NCBI GenBank assembly: GCA_964016885.1
Contig: OZ024741.1
Location: 252,402,001 to 252,466,000, forward strand
From: Eledone cirrhosa
Lineage: Eukaryota
DNA length: 64,000 nt
Reading direction: 5' to 3'
Shown here in pieces: positions 1,398-64,000 of this stretch. Under the pieces are notes generated by a model. The model ran no database searches and was not told the DNA's origin. It saw only the letters and a program-made list of their open reading frames with translations. Both the position numbers and the translations under genes were made by a program. Positions within the stretch are counted from its first letter, which is position 1. Every line of letters begins with the position of its first letter.

Positions 1398-3135
1398 TAA
1401 TAATAGTAATAAGTACAAAGACCAAAATTCAGACAGGTCACAATAAGGGTTATATATATATATATATGTATATGTACATATAGGAAGTATGTGAGAATAA
1501 TATTGATATTGAAATGTTATTTAACTGTCTTCATCTAGATAGATTTCTCATTGATATAATCACGATGAAAATAAATATAATCTGTACTACAGAATCAACT
1601 GTAAATAGACATTCTGTGCTATAGATGAAACTATAAATATACAGTCTGCATGCTGTACGAAGCTATAAATATTGTGAGAAAGTCTTTATATAAAAAGAGT
1701 TTGCAAATATATTTATATATTTATATATGTGTGTGTGAGTGTAAAATTGAAAACCTACTTTAGTTTATTGCAAATCTTCACAATCATCAATCCATTGGTA
1801 AAGATATTGTAAACGTTTGAATTAACAAACCTGTTTTTAACTGTTTTCAACTAAATCCCGACAGTAAAAAAAAATCATCAGAAAGAAACAAAAAGATACA
1901 AAATCTGTTTGTCAGAGTTAAAATCTGTGTTGTAAAGAGAACTGAAATTCCAGGAAGCAAGTCTGACATGTGTGAACAGATATAATGGTTTTCTATTCAT
2001 TATATATATAATCCATGTCAAAAATGACCGTATATCCTATCAAAATATCTGCTACTATTCTCAATAAGCAACAATGCTTCTAACAGAAGTTTATCATTAT
2101 TATTATGACTGCTATTATTATTTTTATTTTGCCTCATTATTGCTTTTCTGAACACCTTGTGCTCCTTGAGTATGAGCAGTGTAGGATTTGTTTCTATTAT
2201 ACTGATAGTAATTTTCATAATATCTGTGCAGTGCCTAGTAGTGCTATCTTTTGTATGCTAGATATATTTATAAATCATGACGTTTGGGCTATGTATTAGT
2301 CTGTGTCATTTTTTATCATTCCTAGAGCATCTATTATTATAGGGATTGTTTCTGTTTTCATTTTCCACAATCGAGTTATTATTATTATCATTATTATTAT
2401 TATTTCCAGAATGACTAATCCACATACATATTAGAGAATCAATATCCACTGACATAGACATATATGTTGTCTTTAATAATACTCTTATATATACATTTCA
2501 GACCATAAATTTCTCTCAGACTTTGTCATACAACAATGTCTGACATCATCACGATATCTGCTGCTCTGTAATTATAGATTCATTAAGATGTCTTCCTATA
2601 TTTTGTTAAGATATTTCTACAATGTTCTGAAAACATCAATTAATGATTATGACATGATACAATATATATATAAAATATTACTTTAGAATTATTTCTGCTA
2701 TATATATATAATGATAATGTGATTAGATTGTTTATAGTAAATATAGAAGTGAAATAATATAAATTAGGAAAAATGGAGTAAAGGCAGGATGTTGTGAAGA
2801 CAAAATGGAGTTTTACTATCATATATGTTGTTTAGTTAGACAAGCTACACACATAATTTTAACTACCAAACAATAGAGTAAAATAAAATAATAAAATAAT
2901 ATTTATTAACTACATTAATATATAAATAGTGTATTTCTAACACTGAATTGAGAAAAATGTAATAATAGGTTAGTATTTTATACTAATATGTATGTTATAT
3001 GTGGAACATCAGTTGATGGTATTTCTCAGTGATAGAAATGGTCTTTTATAAATCTCTTTTAATAATTTCTTACATGTAATATTTTCACATTATATCAAAG
3101 ATGAAATCTGTGAATAAAACAAGATGTACACTTAC

Positions 3136-3480
3136 CTCCATTGTCTCATCCATAATCTATGTCTGTGTATGATACTCTGTGTTAGTATGTGGTAGAGTGT
3201 GATAGTGTCTCTATGGTAGTAGTAGAGAGAGGGATCACAAGATGTAACTGCTGCTGCTGCTGTTATTGTTGTTGTTGTTATTGCTGTTATTGTTACTGGT
3301 GCAGTTCTTATTGTTGTTATTTCTGTGGCCGTTGCTGTTGTTACAGATACTGTTGTTATTGCTGCTGCTGTTGTTACTGTTGTTTTTGTTTTTGTTATTA
3401 CTGCTGCTGTTTCCCTGCTGCAGCAGTCTACTACACACACACAATATTACTACACTCCAATGATGTGTCATAAGAGAGCT
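3136..3480 (-). other. Putative leader exon 1 of the unit-0 gene (triplet-rich 5'UTR; 5' end uncertain)
   Basis: Perfect donor ATGGAG|GTAAGT at 3136/3135, preceded by conserved unique sequence and an AAC/AGC/AAT tract. No convincing acceptor immediately upstream. Confidence 0.55.
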
Positions 3481-3635
3481 GTATAGTCTGTGTAGTGTAT
3501 AGTCTATATACGAGTTCTAGATTCATCATGTACAGTGTAACAATGGTGTGTAGTATATATTTATATGTGGAATTTAGATATATTTTGTGTTGTACAAATA
3601 TATGATGTTTTGAATTACATGGAATATCACTCAAC
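3455..3635 (-). promoter_or_regulatory. Candidate per-gene promoter block (repeated upstream of each leader exon)
   Basis: A ~180-bp unique block, well conserved in all 7 units, lies between variable simple repeats. On the minus strand TATATAG (3510-3504) sits ~30 nt before CAGCTCTCTTATGACACATCAT. The support is positional only. Confidence 0.35.
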
Positions 3636-3700
3636 GTTCTGTTCCTTATATATATACACAACAGAATATGGAGTAATATTCATGTAATTTAACACACAAT

Positions 3701-5705: not shown

Positions 5706-5988
5706 GACATCCACTTCAGCTTCACTAGATATATATTGATAAATACTCTTTCCCTCTCTATTCACTAAGATATAAACTTTCACTCCATCTTAACTAGAGG
5801 TATTCTAAACAATATTCTGACACATCACTTCAGGGGAGAACAAACAACTGAAACATTGAAAGTTGTTTACAAGTGTTAGGACATCACTATACATTACAAA
5901 CTTCCAATAGTGGTATTGAGTTGTGATACATATGATACATATAACAATAGATTTGGTGGTGATATATAATATAGAAAATGTAACTTAC

Positions 5989-8421
5989 CAATATTGTATT
6001 TGGTGGACTCTTCTCCAGGGTACCTGTGTCTATCCATTCACTCTGGGATTCATACTGGGGGTAAAAGTCTCCCTGACATTCTATATACTGGATGTTTCTA
6101 TAATTCAAATCTGTAGAATACCTCACTGGGGTACCAGGAACACTGCTGTTGCTGCTCTGACATGGTAAAGGTTGATCAATTCTGTTACATATAGCTGACC
6201 GATCAACACCTCTCCTAGTGGCCTTTGTAGATTGAGACTGACCACTGCTACATTTCAAAATACACAGTGTGATGGACACTACAATGACCACAGCCACTAT
6301 TACAGCTGCTACTATAATTATAATTAATATTGGTATATCAAATATTTTGTTCTTCTCTAACTGGACAGTGGTCATCTGTGGTGATGATGTCTTGTTAGTG
6401 ACCTTTAATGATAAAGACACAGTAGTTGTGGCTGACATCACTGGGGAACCAGAATCCTTGACCACAAGTACCAGTTGATATGAGCCAGCTTCATTGAGAT
6501 GAGGTGGACGTGAGAAAGACATTTGACCAGTAAAAGAGTTCAGTGTAAACAACTGTTTATTATTACCATCAAGTATTCCATATTTGAGGAAGGCATTTAA
6601 ATGACTGTCTCTATCAGTGGCTTTAATCACAGTGATGGCATTGGTACTTTGTGGATGGTAGTGGACATTGATATGGAATGGGTCAGTTGTAGGGTAGATA
6701 AAATATGGACTATTGTCATTTCTGTCTAAAACCTCAATAACAACATTGGCTGTATTATTCAATGAGGGTTGACCATTGTCTTTGACAAATACTTCAAATT
6801 TATACATGTCTTCTTCTTCTCTATCTAATGGTATGTTACTGGTAATAAAACCATAGTCACTCACCTTAAATGGTATATTATTTCTGTCTTTACTTAATAT
6901 TGAGTAAGTTAGTTGACCAGCCCTTCCTAGGTCTAGGTCAGTGGCATTAATAAAACCTATAGGAAAGTTAGCTTTACCATTCTCATAAGTAAGGAAGTGG
7001 AATTTATCTTTGGTAAATTGTGGTTTCACATCATTCACATCCATTACTTCAATAGAAATCTTTCTCTCTGTCTTTAAAGGAGGACTTCCATTGTCTTCAC
7101 ATACGAGTTTCATGCTAAAATGGTCAGATGTTTCTCTGTCAAGTGATTTCTTCAAAGTAATTTTATATTCCTTTGATTCTAAATGTGAGAGGACAACTTT
7201 ATCATGTTTTAAATTACAAGTCACCTCTCCATTCTCTCCTACATCATTGTCCACTACATTGACATAAGCTATATAACTGCCCACTTTAGTTCCTTCATAA
7301 ATTGCTGCTGTATCCTTCTTTAGTTCAGACACAAAATTCATATCAATTTCTGGAGCATGGTTCTTTTCATTAAGAACATTTACCCGAACAATAGCAAAGG
7401 AATTTAGTGGAGGAGTCCCACCATCTTTGGCCTCTACATATAACTTGAGAATTTTCTTTTTCTGAGATGTAAAGTGTTTTTTGACAAACAGTTCACCTGT
7501 TTGATGTTCTATTTTAAAGTAGCCTCTTGTGCGTCCTGGAGTTTTTGAACTGATATAGAAAGTAACTTGACCATTCTGTCCAGAATCTGGGTCTTTGGCT
7601 GACAATGTCAATATAGGAATATCATTAGCATGTGTATTTTTGATGGAAATATTGTAGATATGTTTTGAAAAAACTGGTGAGTTATCATTAACATCAATTA
7701 TTGTTATATGAACATGTAAAATTCCTTGTTTTGGAGGTTGTCCTCCATCTTTAGCTATCACTTCTAGATTATAACTATCCTTTAGTTCCCTATCTAGTTT
7801 GTCTCCCAGAACAATTCCTATTTTAGCTCCACCTGTGATAGTTTTCCTAACAGACAATATAAATGGTTCATTGAATTTTTTCTTCAATTTATATGTAACT
7901 TCAGAGTTCTCCATTCCGATATCTTTGTCAATTGCTTCTGGTATTAATCTTTCTGCTCCTTCACCATCATCCTCATCAAATGTTAATTTCAAATTCTCTT
8001 GGGGATATTCTGGGCTGTGATCATTGATGTCTTGTATAATGACTTTAACTTTTATAATTTTCAAAAATGTCTTCCTTTTATGTACAGCAACTTTGATGTA
8101 CCTAAAACAATCTGATTCATATGTACACAGTTCCTCAGCATCAAGTGTTTGTGTAGTGTACAGTTTACCATCTTTTGTGACATTAAATAAGTGTGAAGAA
8201 TCTGATCTTTGTCGCTGTATTTGGTTATATGTGATGAAGTTATTTTCTACAAGCGAGGCACTATTTTCCATCTGTGTGTCAGCAGCAATATCCCCAACAA
8301 ATGTAAAGGGACTACTTTCTTCTTCTACATGGTAGCTCAGATCAACACAGACACAACTGTGTAGTAATAGACTGAGGACATTGGCAAGTAAGTATGTATT
8401 CCACACACAATCTACTTCCAT
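5989..8421 (-). CDS. Protocadherin A, large coding exon (811 codons: signal peptide, EC1-EC6, TM, cytoplasmic part)
   Basis: Cadherin motifs DINDHSP, LDRE, AKDGG, DVNDNSP, DVNDVKP, DRNDNSP; EC1 LDAEELC-x5-C; hydrophobic TM IPILIIIIVAAVIVAVVIVVSITLCIL. ATG is at 8421-8419 (the ORF track starts at the preceding GTG). Acceptor TTTCAG| at 8455/8454. Donor TTG|GTAAGT at 5989/5988, after which the paralogs diverge. Confidence 0.96.
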
Positions 8422-17079: not shown

Positions 17080-19512
17080 CAATATTGTATTTGGTGGACT
17101 CTTTTCCAGGGTACCTGTGTCTATCCATTCACTCTGGGATTCATACTGGGGGTAAAAGTCTCCCTGACATTCTATATACTGGATGTTTCTATAATTCAAA
17201 TCTGTAGAATACCTCACTGGGGTACCAGGAACACTGCTGTTGCTGCTCTGACATGGTAAAGGTTGATCAATTCTGTTACATATAGCTGACCGATCAACAC
17301 CTCTCCTAGTGGCCTTTGTAGATTGAGACTGACCACTGCTACATTTCAAAATACACAGTGTGATGGACACTACAATGACCACAGCCACTATTACAGCTGC
17401 TACTATAATTATAATTAATATTGGTATATCAAATATTTTCTTCTTCTCTAACTGGACAGTGGTCATCTGTGGTGCTGTTGTCTTGTTGGTAACCTTTAAT
17501 GATAAAGACACAGTAGTTGTGGCTGACATCACTGGGGTACCAGAATCCTTGACCACAAGTACCAGTTGATATGAGCCAACTTCATTGAGATGAGGTGGAC
17601 GTGAGAAAGACATTTGACCAGTAAAAGAGTTCAGTGTAAACAACTGTTTATTATTACCATCAAGTATTCCATATTTGAGGAAGGCATTTAAATGACTGTC
17701 TCTATCAGTGGCTTTAATCACAGTGATGGCATTGGTACTTTGTGGATGGTAATGGACATTGATATGGAATGGGTCAGTTGTAGGGTAGATAAAATATGGA
17801 CTATTGTCATTTCTGTCTAAAACCTCAATAACAACATTGGCTGTATTATTCAATGAGGGTTGACCATTGTCTTTGACGAATACTTCAAATTTATACATGT
17901 CTTCTTCTTCTCTATCTAATGGTATGTTGCTGGTAATAAAACCATAGTCACTCACCTTAAATGGTATATTATTTCTGTCTTTACTTAATATTGAGTAAGT
18001 TAGTTGACCAGCCCTTCCTAGGTCTGGGTCAGTGGCATTAATAAAACCTATAGGAAAGTTAGCATTTCCATTCTCATAAGTAAGGAAGTGGAATTTATCT
18101 TTGGTAAATTGTGGTTTCACATCATTTACATCCATTACTGCAATAGAAATCTTTCTCTCTGTCTTTAAAGGAGGGCTTCCATTATCTTCACATACAATTT
18201 TTATATTAAAATGGTCCAATATTTCTCTATCAAGTGATTTCTTCAAAGTAATTTTATATTCCTTAGATTCTAAATGTGAGAGTACAACTTTATCATGTTT
18301 TAAATTACAAGTCACCTCTCCATTCTCTCCTACATCATTGTCCACCACATTGATATAAGCTATATAACTGCCCACTTTAGTTCCTTCATAAATTGCTGCT
18401 GTATCTTTCTTTAGTTCAGACACAAAATTCATATCAATTTCTGGGGCATGGTTCTTTTCATTAAGAACATTCACCCGAACAATGGCTAAGGAATTTAATG
18501 GAGGATTCCCACCATCTTTGGCCTCTACATATAACTTGAGAATATTCTTTTTTTGTGATGTAAAGTGTTTTTTTACAAACAATTCTCCTGTCTGGTGGTT
18601 TATTTTAAAGTAGCCTCTTGTGCGCCCTGGCGTTTTTGAACTGATATAGTAAGTAACTTGACCATTTTGTCCAGAATCTGGGTCTTTGGCTGACAATGTC
18701 ACAATGGGAATATCATTAGCATGTGTATTTTTTATGGAAATATTGTAGATATGTTTTGCAAAAACTGGTGAGTTATCATTAACATCAATTATTGTTATAT
18801 GAACATGTAATATTCCTTGTTTCGGAGGTTGCCCACCATCTTTAGCTATTACTTCTAGATTATAACTATCTTTTATTTCCCTATCTAGTTTGTCTCCCAG
18901 AATAATTCCTATTTTAGCACCACCTGTGATAGTTTTCCTAACAGACAATATAAATGGTTCATTGAATCTTTTCTTTAATTTATATGTAATTTCTGAGTTC
19001 TCCATTCCAATATCGTTGTCAATGGCATCTGGTATCAAACCTTCAGCACCTTCACCATCACGTTCCCCAAATATTAATTCCATCTTTTTCTGTGGAAACT
19101 CTGGGCTGTGATCATTGATGTCTTGTATAATGACTTTAACTTTTATGATTTTCAAAAATGTCTTCCGTTTATGTACAGCAACTTTGATGTATCTAAAACA
19201 ATCTGATTCATATGTACACAGTTCCTCAGCATCAAGTGTTTGTGTAGTGTACAGTTTACCATCTTTCGTGACATTAAATAAGTGAGAAGAATCTGTTCTT
19301 TGTTGCTGTATTTGGTGATATGTGATGAAGTTATTTTCTACAAGTGAGGCACTATTCTCCATCTGTGTGTCAGCAGCAATATCCCCAACAAATGTAAAGG
19401 GACTACTTTCTTCTTCTACATGGTAGCTCAGATCAACACAGACACAACTGTGTAATAATAGACTGAGGACATTGGCAAGTAAGTATGTATTCCACACACA
19501 GTCTACTTCCAT
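17080..19512 (-). CDS. Protocadherin B, large coding exon (811 codons)
   Basis: Intact paralog of A. Exon starts at 19545 after TTTCAG. Donor TTG|GTAAGT at 17080/17079. Confidence 0.96.
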
Positions 19513-26336: not shown

Positions 26337-28766
26337 CAATATTGTATTTGGAGGACTCTTCTCCAGGGTACCTGTGTCTATCCATTCACTCTGGGATTCA
26401 TACTGGGGGTAAATATCTCCCTGACATTCTATATACTGGATGTTTCTATTATTCAAATCTGTAGAATACCTCACTGGGGTACCAGGAACACTGCTGTTGC
26501 TGCTCTGACATGGTAAAGGTTGATCAATTCTGTTACATATAGCTGACCGATCAACACCCCTCCTAGTGGCCTTTGTAGATTGAGACTGACCACTGCTACA
26601 TTTCAAAATACACAGTGTGATGGACACTACAATGACTACAGCCACTATTACAGCTGCTACTATAATTATAATTAATATTGGTATATCAAATATTTTGTTC
26701 TTTAACTGGACAGTGGTCATCTGTGGTGCTGTTGTCTTATTGGTGACCTTTAATGATAAAGACACAGTAGTTGTGGCTGACATCACTGGGGTACCAGAAT
26801 CCTTGACCGCAAGTACCAGTTGATATGAGCCAACTTCATTGAGATGAGGTGGACGTGAGAAAGACATTTGACCAGTAAAAGAGTTCAGTGTAAACAACTG
26901 TTTATTATTACCATCAAGTATTCCATATTTGAGGAAGGCATTTAAATGACTGTCTCTATCAGTGGCTTTAATCACAGTGATGGCATTGGTACTTTGTGGA
27001 TGGTAGTGGACATTGATATGGAATGGGTCAGTTGTAGGGTAGATAAAATATGGACTATTGTCATTTCTGTCTAAAACCTCAATAACAACATTGGCTGTAT
27101 TATTCAATGATGGTTGACCATTGTCTTTGACGAATACTTCAAATTTATACATGTCTTCTTCTTCTCTATCTAATGGTATGTTACTGGTAATAAAACCATA
27201 GTCACTCACCTTAAATGGTATATTATTTCTGTCTTTACTTAATACTGAGTAAGTCAGTTGACCAGCACTTCTTAGGTCTGGGTCAGTGGCATTAATAAAA
27301 CCTATAGGAAAGTTAGCTTTACCATTCTCATAAGTAAGGAAGTGGAATTTATCTTTGGTAAATTGTGGTTTCACATCATTTACATCCATTACTTCAATAG
27401 AAATCTTTCTCTCTGTCTTTAAAGGAGGACTTCCATTATCTTCACATACAAGTTTCATGCTAAAATGGTCCGATGTTTCTCTGTCAAGTGATTTCTTCAA
27501 AATAATTTTATATTCTTTGGATTCTAAATGTGCAAGGACAACTTTATCATGTTTTAAATTACAAGTCACCTCTCCATTCTCTCCTACATCATTGTCCACC
27601 ACATTGATATAAGCTATATAACTGCCCACTTCAGTTCCTTCATAAATTGCTGCTGTGTCCTCCTTTAGTTCAGACACAAAATTTATCCTAATTTCTGGAG
27701 CATGGTTCTCTTCATTAAGTATATTGACTCGTACCATTGCAAAGGAATTTAATGAGGGATTCCCACCATCTTTTGCCTCTACATATAACTTGAGAATATT
27801 CTTTTTTTGTGATGTAAAGTGTTTTTTTACAAACAATTCTCCTATCTGATGATTTATTTTAAAATAGCCTCTTGTGCGTCCTGGAGTTTTTGAACTGATA
27901 TAGTAAGTAACTTGACCATTCTGTCCAGAATCTGGGTCTTTCGCTGACAATGTCACAATAGGAATATCATTAGCCTGTGTATTTTTGATGGAAATATTGT
28001 AGATATGTTTTGAAAAAACTGGTGAGTTATCATTAACATCAATTATTGTTATATGAACATGTAAAATTCCTTGTTTTGGAGGTTGTCCACCATCTTTAGC
28101 TATCACTTCTAAATTATAACTATCCTTTAGTTCCCTATCTAGTTTGTCTCCCAGAACAATTCCTATTTTAGCTCCACCTGTGATAGTTTTCCTCACAGAT
28201 AATATAAATGGTTCATTGAATTTTTTCTTCATTTTATATGTAATTTCTGAGTTTTCCATTCTGATATCTTTGTCAATGGCTTCTGGTATTAATCTTTCTG
28301 CTCCTTCCCGGTCTTCTTCATTGAATAAAATTTTCACTTCAGTTTTAGGAAACTCTGGGCTGTGATCATTGATGTCTTGTATAATGACTTTAACTTTTAT
28401 GATTTTCAAAAATGTCTTCCTTTTATGTACAGCAACTTTGATGTATCTAAAACAATCTGATTCATATGTACACAGTTCCTCAGCATCAAGTGTTTGTGCA
28501 GTGTACAGTTTACCATCTTTTGTGACATTAAACAGGTGTGAATCTTCTGTCCATTGCTGTTGTATTTGGTTATATGTGATGAAGTTATTTTCTACAAGTG
28601 AGGCACTATTCTCCATCTGTGTGTCAGCAGCAATATCCCCAACAAATGTAAAGGGACTACTTTCTTCTTCTACATGGTAGCTCAGATCAACACAAACACA
28701 ACTGTGTAATAATAGACTGAGGACATTGGCAAGTAAGTATGTATTCCACACACAGTCTACTTCCAT
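26337..28766 (-). CDS. Protocadherin C, large coding exon (810 codons)
   Basis: Intact paralog with a one-codon deletion before the TM (QLKNKIF). Exon starts at 28799. Donor at 26337/26336. Confidence 0.96.
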
Positions 28767-36074: not shown

Positions 36075-38507
36075 CAATATTGTATTTGGTGGACTCTTCT
36101 CCAGGGTACCTGTGTCTATCCATTCACTCTGGGATTCATACTGGGGGTAAAAATCTCTCTGACATTCTATATACTGGATGTTTCTATTATTCAAATCTGT
36201 AGAATACCTCACTGGGGTACCAGGAACACTGCTGTTGTTGCTCTGACATGGTAAAGGTTGATCAATTCTGTTACATATAGCTGACCGATCAACACCTCTC
36301 CTAGTGGCCTTTGTAGATTGAGACTGACCACTGCTACATTTCAAAATACACAGTGTAATGGACACTACAATGACTACAGCCACTATTACAGCTGCTACTA
36401 TAATTATAATTAATATTGGTATATCAAATAGTTTGTTCTTCTCTAACTGAACAGTGGTCATCTGTGGTGATGATGTCTTGTTAGTGACCTTTAATGATAA
36501 AGACACAGTAGTTGTGGCTGACATCACTGGGGTACCAGAATCCTTGACCACAAGTACCAGTTGATATGAGCCAACTTCATTGAGATGAGGTGGACGTGAG
36601 AAAGACATTTGACCAGTAAAAGAGTTCAGTGTAAACAACTGTTTATTATTACCATCAAGTATTCCATATTTGAGGAAGGCATTTAAATGACTGTCTCTAT
36701 CAGTGGCTTTAATCACAGTGATGGCATTGGTACTTTGTGGATGGTAGTGGACATTGATATGGAATGGGTCAGTTGTAGGGTAGATAAAATATGGACTATT
36801 GTCATTTCTGTCTAAAACCTCAATAACAACATTGGCTGTATTATTCAATGATGGTTGACCATTGTCTTTGACAAATACTTCAAATTTATACATGTCTTCT
36901 TCTTCTCTATCTAATGGTATGTTACTGGTAATAAAACCATAGTCACTCACCTTAAATGGTATATTATTTCTGTCTTTACTAAATATTGAGTAAGTTAGTT
37001 GACCAGCCCTTCCTAGGTCAGGGTCAGTGGCATTTATAAAACCTATAGGAAAGTTAGCTTTACCATTCTCATAAGTAAGGAAGTGGAATTTGTCTTTGGT
37101 AAATTGTGGCTTCACATCATTCACATCCATTACTTCAATAGAAATCTTTCTCTCTGCCTTTAAAGGAGGACTTCCATTGTCTTCACATACGAGTTTCATG
37201 CTAAAATGGTCCAATGTTTCTCTGTCAAGTGATTTCTTCAAAGTAATTTTATATTCCTTTGATTCTAAATGTGAGAGGACAACTTTATCATGTTTTAAAT
37301 TACAAGTTACCTCTCCATTCTCTCCTACATCATTGTCCACTACATTGACATAAGCTATATAACTGCCCACTTCAGTTCCTTCATAAATTGTTGCTGTATC
37401 CTTCTTTAGTTCAGACACAAAATTTATCCTAATTTCTGGAGCATGGTTCTCTTCATTAAGTATATTGACTCGTACCATTGCTAAGGAATTTAATGAGGGA
37501 TTCCCACCATCTCTTGCCTCTACATATAATTTGAGAATATTCTTTGTTTGTGATGTAAAATGTTTTTTTACAAATAATTCTCCTGTTTGATGGTCTATTT
37601 TAAAGTAACTACCAGTGCGCCCTGGAGTTTTTGAACTGATATAATAAGTAACTTGACCATTCTGTCCAGAATCTGGGTCTTTGGCTGACAATGTTACAAT
37701 AGGAATATCATTAGCATATGTATTTTTGATGGAAATATTGTAGATATGTTTTGAAAAAACTGGTGAGTTATCATTAACATCAATTATTGTTATATGAACA
37801 TGTAAAATTCCTTGTTTTGGAGGTTGTCCTCCATCTTTAGCTATCACTTCTAGATTGTAACTATCTTTTAGTTCCCTATCTAACTTCTCTCCCAGAATAA
37901 TTCCTATTTTAGCTCCCCCCGTGATAGTTTTCCTAACAGACAATATAAATGGTTCATTGAATTTTTTCTTCAATTTGTATGTAATTTCTGAGTTCTCTAT
38001 TCCAATATCTTTATCAAAGGCATCTGGTATTAACTCTTCAGCACCTTCACCATCTCGCTCATCAAATGTAAATTCTACCTTTTTCTGTGGAAACTCAGGG
38101 CTATGGTCATTGATGTCTTGTATAATGACTTTAACTTTTATGATTTTCAAAAATGTCTTCCTTTTATGTACAGCAACTTTGATGTATCTAAAACAATCTG
38201 ACTCATATGTACATAGTTCCTCAGCATCAAGTGTTTGTGCAGTGTACAGTTTACCATCTTTTGTGACATTAAACAGGTGTGAATCTTCTGTCCATTGCTG
38301 TTGTATTTGGTTATATGTGATGAAGTTATTTTCTACAAGTGAGGCACTATTCTCCATCTGTGTGTCAGCAGCAATATCCCCAACAAATATAAAGGGACTA
38401 CTTTCTTCTTCTACATGGTAGCTCAGATCAACACAGACACAACTGTGTAATAATAGACTGAGGACATTGGCAAGTAAGTATGTATTCCACAAACAGTCTA
38501 CTTCCAT
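36075..38507 (-). CDS. Protocadherin D, large coding exon (811 codons)
   Basis: Intact paralog. Exon starts at 38540. Donor at 36075/36074. Confidence 0.96.
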
Positions 38508-45489: not shown

Positions 45490-47922
45490 CAATATTGTAT
45501 TTGGTGGACTCTTCTCCAACGTCCCTGTGTCTATCCATTCACTCTGGGATTCATACTGGGGGTAAAAATCTCCCTGACATTCTATATACTGGATGTTTCT
45601 ATAATTCAAATCTGTAGAATACCTCACTGGGGTACCAGGAACACTGCTGTTGCTGCTCTGACATGGTAAAGGTTGATCAATTCTGTTACATATAGCTGAC
45701 CGATCAACACCTCTCCTAGTGGCCTTTGTAGATTGAGACTGACCACTGCTACATTTAAAAATACACAGTGTGATGGACACTACAATGACCACAGCCACTA
45801 TTACAGCTGCTACTATAATTATAATTAATATGGGTATATCAAATATTTTGTTCTTCTCTAGCTGGACAGTGGTCATCTGTGGTGATGATGTCTTGTTAGT
45901 GACCTTTAATGATAAAGACACAGTAGTTGTGGCTGACATCACTGGGGTACCAGAATCCTTGACCACAAGTACCAGTTGATATGAGCCAGCTTCATTAAGA
46001 TGAGGTGGACGTGAGAAAGACATTTGACCAGTAAAAGAGTTCAGTGTAAACAACTGTTTATTATTACCATCAAGTATTCCATATTTGAGGAAGGCATTTA
46101 AATGGCTGTCTCTATCAGTGGCTTTAATCACAGTGATGGCATTGGTACTTTGTGGATGGTAGTGGACATTAATATGGAATGGGTCAGTTGTAGGGTAGAT
46201 AAAATATGGACTATTGTCATTTCTGTCTAAAACCTCAATAACAACATTGGCTGTATTATTCAATGATGGTTGACCATTGTCTTTGACAAATATTACAAAT
46301 TTATACATGTCTTCTTCTTCTCTATCTAATGGTATGTTGCTGGTAATAAAACCATAGTCACTCACCTTAAATGGTATATTATTTCTGTCTTTACTTAATA
46401 CTGAGTAAGTTAGTTGACCAGCACTTCCTAGGTCTGGGTCAGTGGCATTAATAAAACCTATAGGAAAGTTAGCTTTACCATTCTCATAAGTAAGGAAGTG
46501 GAATTTATCTTTGGTAAATTGTGGTTTCACATCATTCACATCCATTACTTCAATAGAAATCTTTCTCTCTGCCTTTAAAGGAGGACTTCCATTGTCTTCA
46601 CATACGAGTTTCATGCTAAAATGGTCCGATGTTTCTCTGTCAAGTGATTTCTTCAAAGTAATTTTATATTCCTTAGATTCTAAATGTGAGAGTACAACTT
46701 GATCATGTTTTAAATTACAAGTCACCTCTCCATTCTCCCCTACATCATTGTCCACTACATTGACATAAGCTATATAACTGCCCACTTCAGTTCCTTCATA
46801 AATTGATGCTGTATCCTTCTTTGGTTCAGACACAAAATTTATTCCAATTTTAGGAGCATGGTTCTCTTCATTAATGATATTAACCCGAACAATGGCAAAG
46901 GAATTTAATGGAGGATTCCCTCCATCTTTGGCTTCTACATACAACTTGAGAATATTCTTTTTTTGTGATGTAAAATGTTTTTTTACAAATAATTCTCCTG
47001 TTTGATGGTTTATTTTAAAGTAACTACCAGTGCGCCCTGGAGTTTTTGAACTGATATAGTAAGTAACTTGACCATTCTGTCCAGAATCTGGATCTTTGGC
47101 TGACAATGTCCCAATAGGAATATCATTAGCCTGTGTATTTTTGATGGAAATATTGTAAATATGCTTTGAAAAAACTGGTGAGTTATCATTAACATCAATT
47201 ATTGTTATATGAACAGGTAAAATTCCTTGTTTTGGAGGTTGTCCTCCATCTTTAGCTATCACTTCTAGATTATAACTATCTTTTAGTTCCCTGTCTAGTT
47301 TGTCTCCCAGAACAATTCCTATTTTAGCTCCACCTGTGATAGTTTTCCTAACAGATAATATAAATGGTTCATTGAATTTTTTCTTCAATTTATATGTAAC
47401 TTCAGAGTTCTCCATTCCAATATCTTTATCAATGGCATCTGGTATTAATCTTTCTGCTCCTTCACTATCACGCTCATAAAATGTGATATTCATTTTTTTC
47501 TGTGGAAACTCTGGGCTGTGATCATTGATGTCTTCTATAATGACTTTAACTTTTATAATTTTCAGAAATGTCTTCCTTTTATGTACAGCAACTTTGATGT
47601 ATCTAAAACAATCTGACTCATATGTACACAGTTCCTCAGCATCAAGTGTTTGTGTAGTGTACAGTTTACCATCTTTTGTGACATTAAATAAGTGTGACTC
47701 TTCTGTCCATTGCTGTTGCATTTGGTTATATGTGATGAAGTTATTTTCTACAAGCGAGGCACTATTCTCCATCTGTGTGTCAGCAGCAATATCCCCAACA
47801 AATGTAAAGGGACTACTTTCTTCTTCTACATGGTAGCTCAGATCAACACAGACACAACTGTGTAGTAATAGACTGAGGATATTGACAAGTAAGTATGTAT
47901 TCCACACACAGTCTACTTCCAT
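45490..47922 (-). CDS. Protocadherin E, large coding exon (811 codons)
   Basis: Intact paralog. Exon starts at 47955. Donor at 45490/45489. Confidence 0.96.
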
Positions 47923-54349: not shown

Positions 54350-56782
54350 CAATATTGTATTTGGTGGACTCTTCTCAAGGGTACCTGTGTCTATCCATTC
54401 ACTCTGGGATTCATACTGGGGGTAGAAATCTCCCTGACATTCTATATACTGGATGTTTCTATAATTCAAATCTGTAGAATACCTCACTGGGGTACCAGGA
54501 ACACTGCTGTTGCTGCTCTGACATGGTAAAGGTTGATCAATTCTGTTACATATAGCTGACCGATCAACACCTCTCCTAGTGGCCTTTGTAGATTGAGACT
54601 GACCACTGCTACATTTCAAAATACACAGTGTGATGGACACTACAATGACCACAGCCACTATTACAGCTGCTACTATAATTATAATTAATATTGGTATATC
54701 AAATATTTTGTTCTTCTCTAACTGGACAGTGGTCATCTGTGGTGATGATGTCTTGTTAGTGACCTTTAATGATAAAGACACAGTAGTTGTGGCTGACATC
54801 ACTGGGGTACCAGAATCCTTGACCACAAGTACCAGTTGATATGAGCCAGCTTCATTGAGATGAGGTGGACGAGAGAAAGACATTTGACCAGTAAAAGAGT
54901 TCAGTGTAAACAACTGTTTATTATTACCATCAAGTATTCCATATTTGAGGAAGGCATTTAAATGACTGTCTCTATCAGTGGCTTTAATCACAGTGATGGC
55001 ATTGGTACTTTGTGGATGGTAGTGGACATTGATATGGAATGGGTCAGTTGTAGGGTAGATAAAATATGGACTATTGTCATTTCTGTCTAAAACCTGAATA
55101 ACAACATTGGCTGTATTATTCAATGATGGTTGACCATTGTCTTTGACAAATACTTCAAATTTATACATGTCTTCTTCTTCTCTATCTAATGGTATGTTGC
55201 TGGTAATAAAACCATAGTCACTCACCTTAAATGGTATATTATTTCTGTCTTTACTTAATATTGAGTAAGTTAGTTGACCAGCCCTTCCTAGGTCTGGGTC
55301 AGTGGCATTAATAAAACCTATAGGAAAGTTAGCTTTACCATTCTCATAAGTAAGGAAGTGGAAATTATCTTTGGTAAATTGTGGTTTCACATCATTCACA
55401 TCCATTACTTCAATAGAAATCTTTCTCTCTGTCTTTAAAGGAGGACTTCCATTATCTTCACATACAAGTTTTATACTAAAATGGTCCAATGTTTCTCTGT
55501 CAAGTGATTTCTTCAAAGTAATTTTATATTCCTTTGATTCTAAATGTGAGAGGACAACTTTATCATGTTTTAAATTACAAGTCACCTCTCCATTCTCTCC
55601 TACATCATTGTCCACTACATTGACATAAGCTATATAACTGCCCACTTCAGTTCCTTCATAAATTGATGCTGTGTCCTTCTTTAGTTCAGACACAAAATTT
55701 ATCCTAATTTCTGGGGCATGGTTCTTTTCATTAAGAATATTCACCCGTACAATGGCAAAGGAATTTAGTGGTGGAGTCCCACCATCTTTGGCCTCTACAT
55801 ATAACTTCAGAATATTCTTTTTTTGGGATGTAAAATGTTTTCTCACGAACAATTCTCCTGTCTGGTGGTTTATTTTAAAGTAGCCTCTTGTGCGCCCTGG
55901 AGTTTTTGAACTGATATAATAAGTAACTTGACTATTCTGTCCTGAATCTGGGTCTTTAGCTGACAATGTTACAATGGGAATATCATTAGTCTGTGTATTT
56001 TTGATGGAAATATTGTAGATATGTTTTGCAAAAACTGGTGAGTTATCATTAACATCAATTATTGTTATATGAACATGTAAAATTCCTTGTTTTGGAGGTT
56101 GCCCTCCATCTTTAGCTATCACTTCTAGATTATAACTATCTTTTAGTTCCCTATCTAGTTTGTCTCCCAGAATAATTCCTATTTTAGCTCCACCTGTGAT
56201 AGTTTTCCTAACAGACAATATAAATGGTTCATTGAATTTTTTCTTTAATTTATATGTAACTTCAGAGTTCTCCATTCCAATATCGTTGTCAATGGCATCT
56301 GGTATCAAACCTTCAGCACCTTCACCATCACGTTCCCCAAATATTAATTCCATCTTTTTCTGTGGAAACTCTGGGCTGTGATCATTGATGTCTTGTATAA
56401 TGACTTTAACTTTTATGATCTTCAAAAATGTCTTCTGTTTATGTACAGCAACTTTGATGTATCTAAAACAATCTGACTCATATGTACACAGTTCCTCAGC
56501 ATCAAATGTTTGTGCAGTGTACAGTTTACCATCTTTTGTGACATTAAACAGGTGTGAATCTTCTGTCCATTGCTGTTGTATTTGGTTATATGTGATGAAG
56601 TTATTTTCTACAAGCGAGGCACTATTTTCCATCTGTGTGTCAGCAGCAATATCCCCAATAAATGTAAAGGGACTATTTTCCTCTTCTACATGGTAGCTCA
56701 GATCAACACAGACACAACTGTGAAGTAATAGACTGAGGACATTGGCAAGTAAGTATCTATTCCACACACAGTCTACTTCCAT
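54350..56782 (-). CDS. Protocadherin F, large coding exon (811 codons)
   Basis: Intact paralog. Exon starts at 56812 (3-nt deletion in the UTR part). Donor at 54350/54349. Confidence 0.96.
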
Positions 56783-63448: not shown

Positions 63449-64000
63449 CAATATTGTATTTGGTGGACTCTTCTCAAGGGTACCTGTGTCTATCCATTCA
63501 CTCTGGGATTCATACTGGGGGTAGAAATCTCCCTGACATTCTATATACTGGATGTTTCTATAATTCAAATCTGTAGAATACCTCACTGGGGTACCAGGAA
63601 CACTGCTGTTGCTGCTCTGACATGGTAAAGGTTGATCAATTCTGTTACATATAGCTGACCGATCAACACCTCTCCTAGTGGCCTTTGTAGATTGAGATTG
63701 ACCACTGCTACATTTAAAAATACACAGTGTGATGGACACTACAATGACCACAGCCACTATTACAGCTGCTACTATAATTATAATTAATATTGGTATATCA
63801 AATATTTTGTTCTTCTCTAACTGGACAGTGGTCATCTGTGGTGATGATGTCTTGTTAGTGACCTTTAGTGATAAAGACACAGTAGTTGTGGCTGACATCA
63901 CTGGGGTACCAGAATCCTTGACCACAAGTACCAGTTGATATGAGCCAGCTTCATTGAGATAAGGTGAACGTGAGAAAGACATTTGACCAGTAAAAGAGTT
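63449..64000 (-). CDS. Protocadherin G, 3' part of large exon (end of EC6, TM, cytoplasmic), truncated by window edge
   Basis: Translation matches the C-terminal part of A-F. Same donor at 63449/63448. Confidence 0.93.

Follow-up and report, generated by a model that had tools for sequence, protein, structure and literature searches.

How does one short stretch at the beginning of the second extracellular cadherin repeat (EC2) remain different among tandem protocadherin genes whose other coding sequence has become nearly alike, and is it selection that keeps it so? The question arises from a 64-kb stretch of Eledone cirrhosa DNA (the window), for which the original prediction had claimed diversifying selection on an isoform-identity surface at this position, by comparison with the clustered protocadherins (Pcdhs) of vertebrates. 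Regional gene conversion in vertebrate clustered Pcdhs was reportedly described by Noonan in 2004 and Wu in 2005. Their specificity has been placed in the EC2:EC3 and EC1:EC4 contacts of an antiparallel dimer (PMC5106212, PMC5001838, PMC8901172), and Etlioglu et al. 2016 (PMC4978886) describe dS as highest in EC2/EC3 and lowest in EC5/EC6, together with regional conversion. For cephalopods, gene conversion among protocadherins has been suggested in general terms (Albertin et al. 2022, PMC9068888; Styfhals et al. 2019, PMC6339937), a protocadherin burst has been dated to 8-14 Ma from Jukes-Cantor distances (Jiang et al. 2022, PMC9795677), and the accessible part of PMC9068888 makes no functional claim for the expansion. 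The present analysis bears on whether the cephalopod protocadherin expansion amounts to a vertebrate-like self/non-self code, for which candidate residues can now be named.

Results

The window carries six complete open reading frames (828-849 codons) on the minus strand and the 3' part of a seventh, all belonging to an array of 16 close tandem paralogs and two edge genes (g01 and g02) within 226 kb of this genome, where at least 150 matches were found in all, the majority on a single contig. Spacing is ~9-12 kb for 16 of the 18 same-strand ORFs, and the reading frame is open in all 18. The gene products yielded one Cadherin_2 and five Cadherin domains in Pfam, protocadherins were their top PDB sequence matches (residues 29-670 aligned), and an AlphaFold model of EC1-4 (pLDDT 87) agreed in fold with Pcdh EC1-4 structures; together with the signal peptide, single transmembrane (TM) helix and tail that can be read off the sequence, this is the layout of a six-EC protocadherin. 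The nearest database proteins are protocadherins of Octopus vulgaris and Argonauta hians (80-81% identity), and this kinship and the tandem layout agree with a coleoid clustered protocadherin sub-array. Vertebrate proteins are only ~30% identical, which argues against descent from the vertebrate alpha/beta/gamma cluster. Because a donor-like GTAAG directly follows the codon equivalent to 811 in 18/18 genes, the ORF ends past that codon are probably intron read-through (the ORF of gene A spans 5887-8421, minus strand), and the large coding exons are given here up to the putative splice site:

5989..8421, minus strand: large coding exon of gene A (g07), comprising signal peptide, six cadherin repeats, TM helix and tail to codon 811
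17080..19512, minus strand: large coding exon of gene B (g08)
26337..28766, minus strand: large coding exon of gene C (g09)
36075..38507, minus strand: large coding exon of gene D (g10)
45490..47922, minus strand: large coding exon of gene E (g11)
54350..56782, minus strand: large coding exon of gene F (g12)
63449..64000, minus strand: 3' part of the seventh paralog (g13), EC2 type C, with its start beyond the end of the window

Some further features of the locus were recorded. Downstream of the ATGs, at a distance of ~4750-6000 nt (for gene A, near 2400-3700), lies a non-coding-looking block that can be aligned across as many as 14 of 15 units with 73-92% identity and may represent downstream exons or the promoter of the next gene. 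The edge genes g01 and g02 (G000:C2:252324281-252351132) are far from the other 16 in EC1-EC3, with EC1 identity down to 55%, and near-identical to them from EC4 to the tail, with B-like and A-like patch types; O. vulgaris (P0134), O. sinensis and Argonauta (P0004) have edge genes of a comparable kind. Two public gene models, P0126 and P0139, fuse 2-6 adjacent protocadherins of the subfamily into one protein (1571 and 4660 aa), and the database protein P0001 (1102 aa) also looks mis-modelled.

The segment predicted to be hypervariable (7915-8013, minus strand) corresponds to codons 137-169 of gene A. In the EC1-4 model, codons 139-158 (the patch) take in the EC2 A' strand (143-149), the AB loop and the start of the B strand (157-160). 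All five peptide versions that had been reported for the six genes were present as listed, and genes B and F agree over 139-158 even in DNA. Among the six genes, the 20 codons from 139 hold 23 extra amino-acid states, the highest value of any such interval, and column shuffles reached 23 in 0/10,000 trials (maximum 15 when the whole gene was shuffled and 19 for EC1-4 only), which bears out the claim of a hypervariable EC2 start. The EC2 cassettes of the six genes are:

7948..8007, minus strand: gene A, codons 139-158, type A
19039..19098, minus strand: gene B, type B, DNA identical to the gene F cassette
28293..28352, minus strand: gene C, type C, also in g13, g14 and O. vulgaris P0129
38034..38093, minus strand: gene D, type D, also in g04, g06, O. 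vulgaris and O. sinensis
47449..47508, minus strand: gene E, type E, retaining the ancestral sequon N145-I-T147
56309..56368, minus strand: gene F, type B

Over the 16 genes we counted 11 distinct sequences at 141-158 and seven types at 149-158, and the net charge of residues 141-158 ranged from -6 to 0. Variable islands also lie at 68-75, 196-199, 287-306 and 349-361, but none is as strong as the patch. Exons are 88-99% identical between paralogs (gene A against genes B-F, 90-93% over EC1-4), whereas the non-coding flanks are ~65-98% identical where they can be aligned at all. Because intergenic non-coding DNA is far more diverged than the exon, the sequences indicate that the gene copies are old, that the exon has been homogenised, and that the patch is an island that escaped.

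Substitution rates showed in what respect the patch stands out. For the six genes, pS was 0.54 and pN 0.21 in the patch, compared with a pS of 0.04-0.055 in EC5, EC6, TM and tail and 0.08 in the signal peptide, in keeping with the original description of these parts as almost invariant even at silent sites. The values for 16 genes were similar (patch pS 0.50 and pN 0.21; EC5-6 pS 0.045, about a tenfold difference in silent depth), as were those of three arrays of this genome with 16, 32 and 30 genes (patch pS 0.50, 0.51 and 0.65; EC5-6 0.03-0.05), and patch pN was ~10-30 times EC5-6 pN in the 16-gene array. Codon tree lengths in the three arrays, in changes per codon, were 5.2, 8.5 and 14.1 for the patch and 0.3-0.7 for EC5-6 (0.3-0.5 in the 16-gene array). 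The elevated dN/dS expected of diversifying selection was not observed, an outcome that the original prediction had itself named as refuting it: maximum-likelihood omega was 0.17-0.26 (about 0.2) in the patch and 0.09-0.32 in other domains, and allowing a class with omega > 1 brought M2a no gain over M1a in 3/3 arrays (2dL ~0; 33 codons, low power). The site models were run in a custom implementation on fixed region trees, and the M1a fit of the 16-gene array may be a local optimum. GC3 across regions (0.16-0.35) showed no clear conversion-bias pattern. In these arrays EC2/EC3 escape conversion while EC5/EC6 are homogenised, as in vertebrate clustered Pcdhs, and what distinguishes the patch, judging from these sequence comparisons, is the depth and age of its variants and not fast adaptive replacement. 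Since variant age is raised and replacement rate is not, dN/dS is the wrong test for the patch.

Four-gamete incompatibility was 0.44 at distances below 30 nt, then 0.71, and 0.80 above 100 nt, so that linkage decays within ~100 nt, and the 11 pairs of same-type patches differ at 0-5 of 60 nt, compared with 5-8.5% in the remainder of EC1-4. The alignments indicate that copies of the patch pass from one paralog to another in the form of a ~60-nt cassette.

We compared the 16-gene array with arrays h (32 genes) and k (30 genes) of the same genome and with the orthologous arrays of O. vulgaris (10 sequences) and Argonauta (6). Seven low-complexity ORFs and two edge genes among the 41 of array h, g01 and g02 among the 18 of the present array, O. 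vulgaris P0127 and P0134 (g01/g02-like) and P0138 (a fragment), Argonauta P0004, and O. bimaculoides P0001 (no segment above 60% identity) were left out, and O. sinensis, with 4 of 8 pieces, entered the type and sequon counts only. In 5/5 arrays the most variable 20-residue interval (of 755) begins at nearly the same place (139, 140, 141, 139 and 143), while the three arrays of this genome share only 65-67% identity in EC5-6. Divergence of equivalent segments within arrays is 0.29-0.50 in EC2 and 0.00-0.15 in EC3-EC6; between species, equivalent EC3-EC6 segments diverge by 0.03-0.20, and between arrays the EC2 patch segment is the most divergent (0.63 vs 0.30-0.61 for equivalent segments). Arrays h and k, 67% identical in EC5-6, have three identical 10-residue patch types, which point either to great age or to convergence.

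For these common types, recent conversion between the two arrays was considered and ruled out by the saturation of their silent sites. Two peculiarities of the arrays were also seen. In array k (G000:C2:239945001-240235000), 8 of 30 genes have one long EC2-EC3 haplotype (~codons 145-325) that moves as a block, and the 141-158 sequence is unique in 29 of 30 genes. In array h (G000:C2:239450000-239491000), low-complexity repeat tracts yield spurious ORFs of 600-1500 codons, one with a mobile-element-like stretch.

The age of the patch types was assessed against other octopods, at the protein level only. Four of the seven 10-residue types are identical in O. vulgaris, covering 10/16 genes of this array and 8/9 of O. 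vulgaris, and one recurs without change in a single Argonauta gene out of 6. Compared with O. vulgaris, residues 141-164 have 12 shared-polymorphic columns and 0 fixed, and EC5-tail has 0 shared-polymorphic columns and 48 fixed. The EC5-tail tree accordingly gives each species one clade (support 100/99), while species monophyly is rejected for the patch tree (AU p = 0.028 and 0.022, 24 columns), in which type C clusters with O. vulgaris P0129 at 99/97 through common states at 142, 144, 149, 151 and 153. The patch types thus likely predate the species, although some of the cross-species identity could be convergent. The same comparison reversed one earlier claim, namely that gene E had gained a glycosylation sequon: N145-x-T/S147 is found in 8/9 O. 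vulgaris, 6/6 Argonauta and 4/4 O. sinensis genes and in 6/16 of the present paralogs. Because nearly all outgroup genes carry it, the N145 sequon reads as ancestral, kept by E and absent from A-D and F.

Several neighbouring islands vary as pairs. The gene A members of these pairs are:

8197..8220, minus strand: EC1 cassette (codons 68-75), of which the array has three types, each going without exception with a matching type at EC4 357-360
7342..7353, minus strand: EC4 A-strand cassette, codons 357-360, partner of EC1 68-75
7828..7836, minus strand: EC2 DE-loop cassette, codons 196-198; residue 198 is G or R
7534..7563, minus strand: EC3 C-strand/CD-loop cassette, codons 287-296; residue 293 is K or E and is the partner of 198

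EC1 68-75 and EC4 358/360, ~870 nt apart, match in 16/16 genes here (chance 7e-7 for that pair, picked from 1691 examined), 8/8 in O. vulgaris and 6/6 in Argonauta, and the intervening sites are independent of the EC1 type. The basic EC1 type goes with the acidic EC4 type, and the acidic, Trp-bearing EC1 types go with Lys-Gly or Glu-Arg. Residues 198 and 293 match in 16/16 genes here, 8/9 in O. vulgaris and 6/6 in Argonauta, as R-E or G-K. In array k, all of the top 20 of 1018 pairs join EC1 111-119 to EC4 369-377, and the independent EC1-EC4 pair there, 117-377, shows a charge swap (22 genes, with the 8-gene block set aside). In array h, 173 matches 293 in 32/32 genes; EC1-EC4 covariation was absent there (best 0.09) because neither repeat varies much. 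Within one calcium-rigid chain EC1 and EC4 cannot reach each other, but in the antiparallel dimers of vertebrate protocadherins they are in contact. The paired cassettes (EC1-EC4 and EC2-EC3) have the geometry that an antiparallel homophilic dimer predicts, and covariation of this kind was seen in three arrays of this genome and in two other species. In the EC1 cassette, a 6-nt in-frame deletion (equivalent of window 8191-8196) was also noted in g06, g14, g15 and g16, and it is present in short-read contigs of runs X1 and X4.

The patch itself had no convincing distant covarying partner (best adjusted MI: 16-gene array 0.63, array h 0.50); such covariation as array k has comes solely from the 8-gene block, and the region corresponding to the vertebrate partner (336-344) does not track patch type. 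Its position does overlap with vertebrate interfaces. By alignment, 156-159 correspond to pcdh10 T122-P125, residues placed at the base of the EC2:EC3 interface, in the contact of EC2 A/B with the EC3 G strand (PMC7082078); 147 corresponds to gammaB 111, a specificity residue (PMC5106212; numbering via gammaB4, possibly off by one); and 159 corresponds to gammaB3 123, of the coevolving interface pair 123-300 (10.1101/493106; PMC5001838). The present array has no variation at residues 159 and 161, the equivalents of members of the vertebrate interface pairs 123-300 and 125-253, and for 141-146, among the most variable positions, no vertebrate interface evidence was found in the literature used. 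As for the neighbouring cassettes, 360 aligns with pcdh10 Ser342, a variable EC1:EC4 contact (PMC7082078), and the array k pair corresponds to a vertebrate contact in which the EC1 beta6-beta7 loop meets the EC4 loop that follows beta1a (PMC5001838).

Discussion

Our results suggest that the patch is probably an old cassette common to octopod species, likely kept, as a predicted part of a homophilic recognition surface, by selection that removes the conversions erasing it. Short-tract gene conversion would be the copying process. Conversion in EC5-tail would be harmless and spread, conversion across the patch would be tolerated if a new combination results and purged if two isoforms become alike, and conversion in a paired cassette would be purged when complementarity breaks. 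The surface would be that of an antiparallel EC1-4 dimer, with a possible role in neuronal self-recognition. In such a dimer the patch would be placed at the two-fold axis, close to the EC2-EC3 linker, and its contact may be with a second copy of itself or with an EC3 surface that does not vary, either of which would account for the missing distant partner. Of the original interpretation, conversion-type homogenisation in the rest of the exon and selection on a probable isoform-identity surface were upheld by the cross-species types, the hot spot in 5/5 arrays and the overlap with vertebrate interface positions, while diversifying selection as measured by dN/dS was not.

Four other explanations were weighed against this reading. 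Neutral escape, in which a tolerant surface stretch diverged by chance and its mismatches then blocked conversion, with no selection for diversity, would fit the joint rise of pS and pN with ordinary omega, the lack of a covarying partner, and the patch's divergence between arrays, which exceeds that of all equivalent segments and marks it as tolerant; we consider it rather unlikely, since the patch does get copied among paralogs (0-5/60 nt within a type, 11 pairs), a chance island would be unexpected at the same codons in 5/5 arrays, and the equivalents in EC3-EC6 are for the most part homogenised inside a species (0.00-0.15) despite their divergence from one species to another (0.03-0.20). 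Nor could neutrality produce the perfect linkage over ~870 nt of unlinked sites in three species, although this linkage concerns the neighbouring cassettes and not the patch. It is quite unlikely that something other than homophilic trans specificity keeps the patch diverse, be it heterophilic partners, a switch through a glycan at N145, an external ligand or a pathogen. The patch covaries with no partner encoded in the same molecule, the sequon is present in 6/16 genes and absent in 10, and charge spans -6 to 0, all of which such a role could explain; against it, the EC1-EC4 and EC2-EC3 matches of the neighbouring cassettes are nested, as homodimers would have them, the patch coincides in part with interface residues of EC2 A/B in vertebrates (PMC7082078, PMC5106212), and pathogen pressure should raise omega, which is not raised.

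Ongoing diversifying selection with rapid replacement, the types common to several species then being convergent, appears very improbable to us. The high patch pN, the weakness of 33-codon site models with silent sites near saturation, and the saturated types common to arrays h and k leave some room for it, but omega is 0.17-0.26 with M2a no better than M1a in 3/3 arrays, and the clustering of type C with P0129 at 99/97 through five common states would take many convergent steps. Extremely improbable is an assembly artefact, with patch variants and mosaics produced by errors or chimeric joins of near-identical repeats. Exons 88-99% identical could favour such joins, and no short-read contig spans the whole examined stretch, long-range combinations included. 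However, the short-read contig X1/4 agrees with all 100 nt of 28278-28377, the type C patch region (0 differences), the letters for R151 account for 83/146 of the depth in run X1, compared with R151 in 9/16 genes, the same types and pairings are found in independent O. vulgaris and Argonauta assemblies, and 18/18 reading frames are open.

Starting from the preferred reading, an old cassette kept by selection, a more specific proposal can be made, which we put forward tentatively and regard as somewhat less than an even bet: octopod neuronal identity tags may be combinatorial via gene conversion, with a seven-state EC2 A'/AB/B patch at the dimer axis, a three-state EC1/EC4 pair and a two-state EC2-DE/EC3-CD pair, partners being matched and combinations kept unique by selection. 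Such selection would lead to the observed placement of all 16 genes in different cells of the 7 x 3 grid of patch type and EC1/EC4 type. Of the 11 gene pairs in this array with a common EC2 type, 0 also share the EC1 type (3.4 expected, P = 0.008, post hoc); this result was not repeated in O. vulgaris (2/6 pairs, P = 0.72) or Argonauta (1/3, P = 0.80), and a three-module uniqueness test was not significant in any of the three species (P = 0.14, 0.63 and 0.43). If the combinatorial proposal is true, the specificity code of an unstudied receptor family would be readable from the genome. The array supplies natural gene pairs, B and F with the same patch, and A and B, as well as C, D and F, with the same EC1/EC4 pair but a different patch, so that with the residues now named the self/non-self question becomes directly testable. 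In vertebrates, five interface residues are enough to separate isoforms that are 92% identical (PMC8901172), an identity that resembles that of A against B-F over EC1-4. The results also imply arrays older than the species that carry them, and paralog-distance dates of a recent burst are then likely too young; conversion would bias the 8-14 Ma date (PMC9795677) in that direction.

Conversion that spares EC2/EC3 in vertebrates and conversion in cephalopods were known, and the cassette-level, trans-species and interface patterns appear to be new. Our literature search, which covered a minority of the subscription journals, found no cephalopod paper on these patterns and no binding study of cephalopod protocadherins. 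The head-to-tail, full-gene tandem copies are as described for coleoid protocadherin sub-arrays (PMC9068888, PMC6339937, PMC9795677), whose reports, in their accessible parts, treat conversion per whole gene and contain no pattern by domain or cassette, no trans-species types and no interface covariation (the term EC2 is absent from PMC6339937), whereas the present data show a cassette-level pattern, trans-species types and interface covariation. The comparison with vertebrate clustered Pcdhs that motivated the original prediction is apt for the sparing of EC2/EC3 from conversion and not for descent, the genes being cephalopod protocadherins. Both systems encode six EC repeats in a single large exon with deep EC2/EC3 and shallow EC5/EC6 divergence; the expansions are independent, however, the octopod copies are full genes, and the vertebrate mechanism of stochastic promoter choice and splicing of variable exons to shared constant exons is described as missing from cephalopods (PMC9068888). 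Moreover, whole EC2-EC3 domains go unconverted in vertebrates, whereas diversity here consists of 10-60 nt islands shuffled among genes. The delta-2 protocadherins (pcdh8, 10, 17, 18 and 19) include the best sequence match among solved structures (6vg1) and are among the top fold matches. They are single, dispersed genes, ~30% identical and without tandem homogenisation, yet their variable interface sites (EC2 A/B base, EC2 DE loop, EC3 CD loop and EC4 Ser342; PMC7082078) align with the octopod cassettes.
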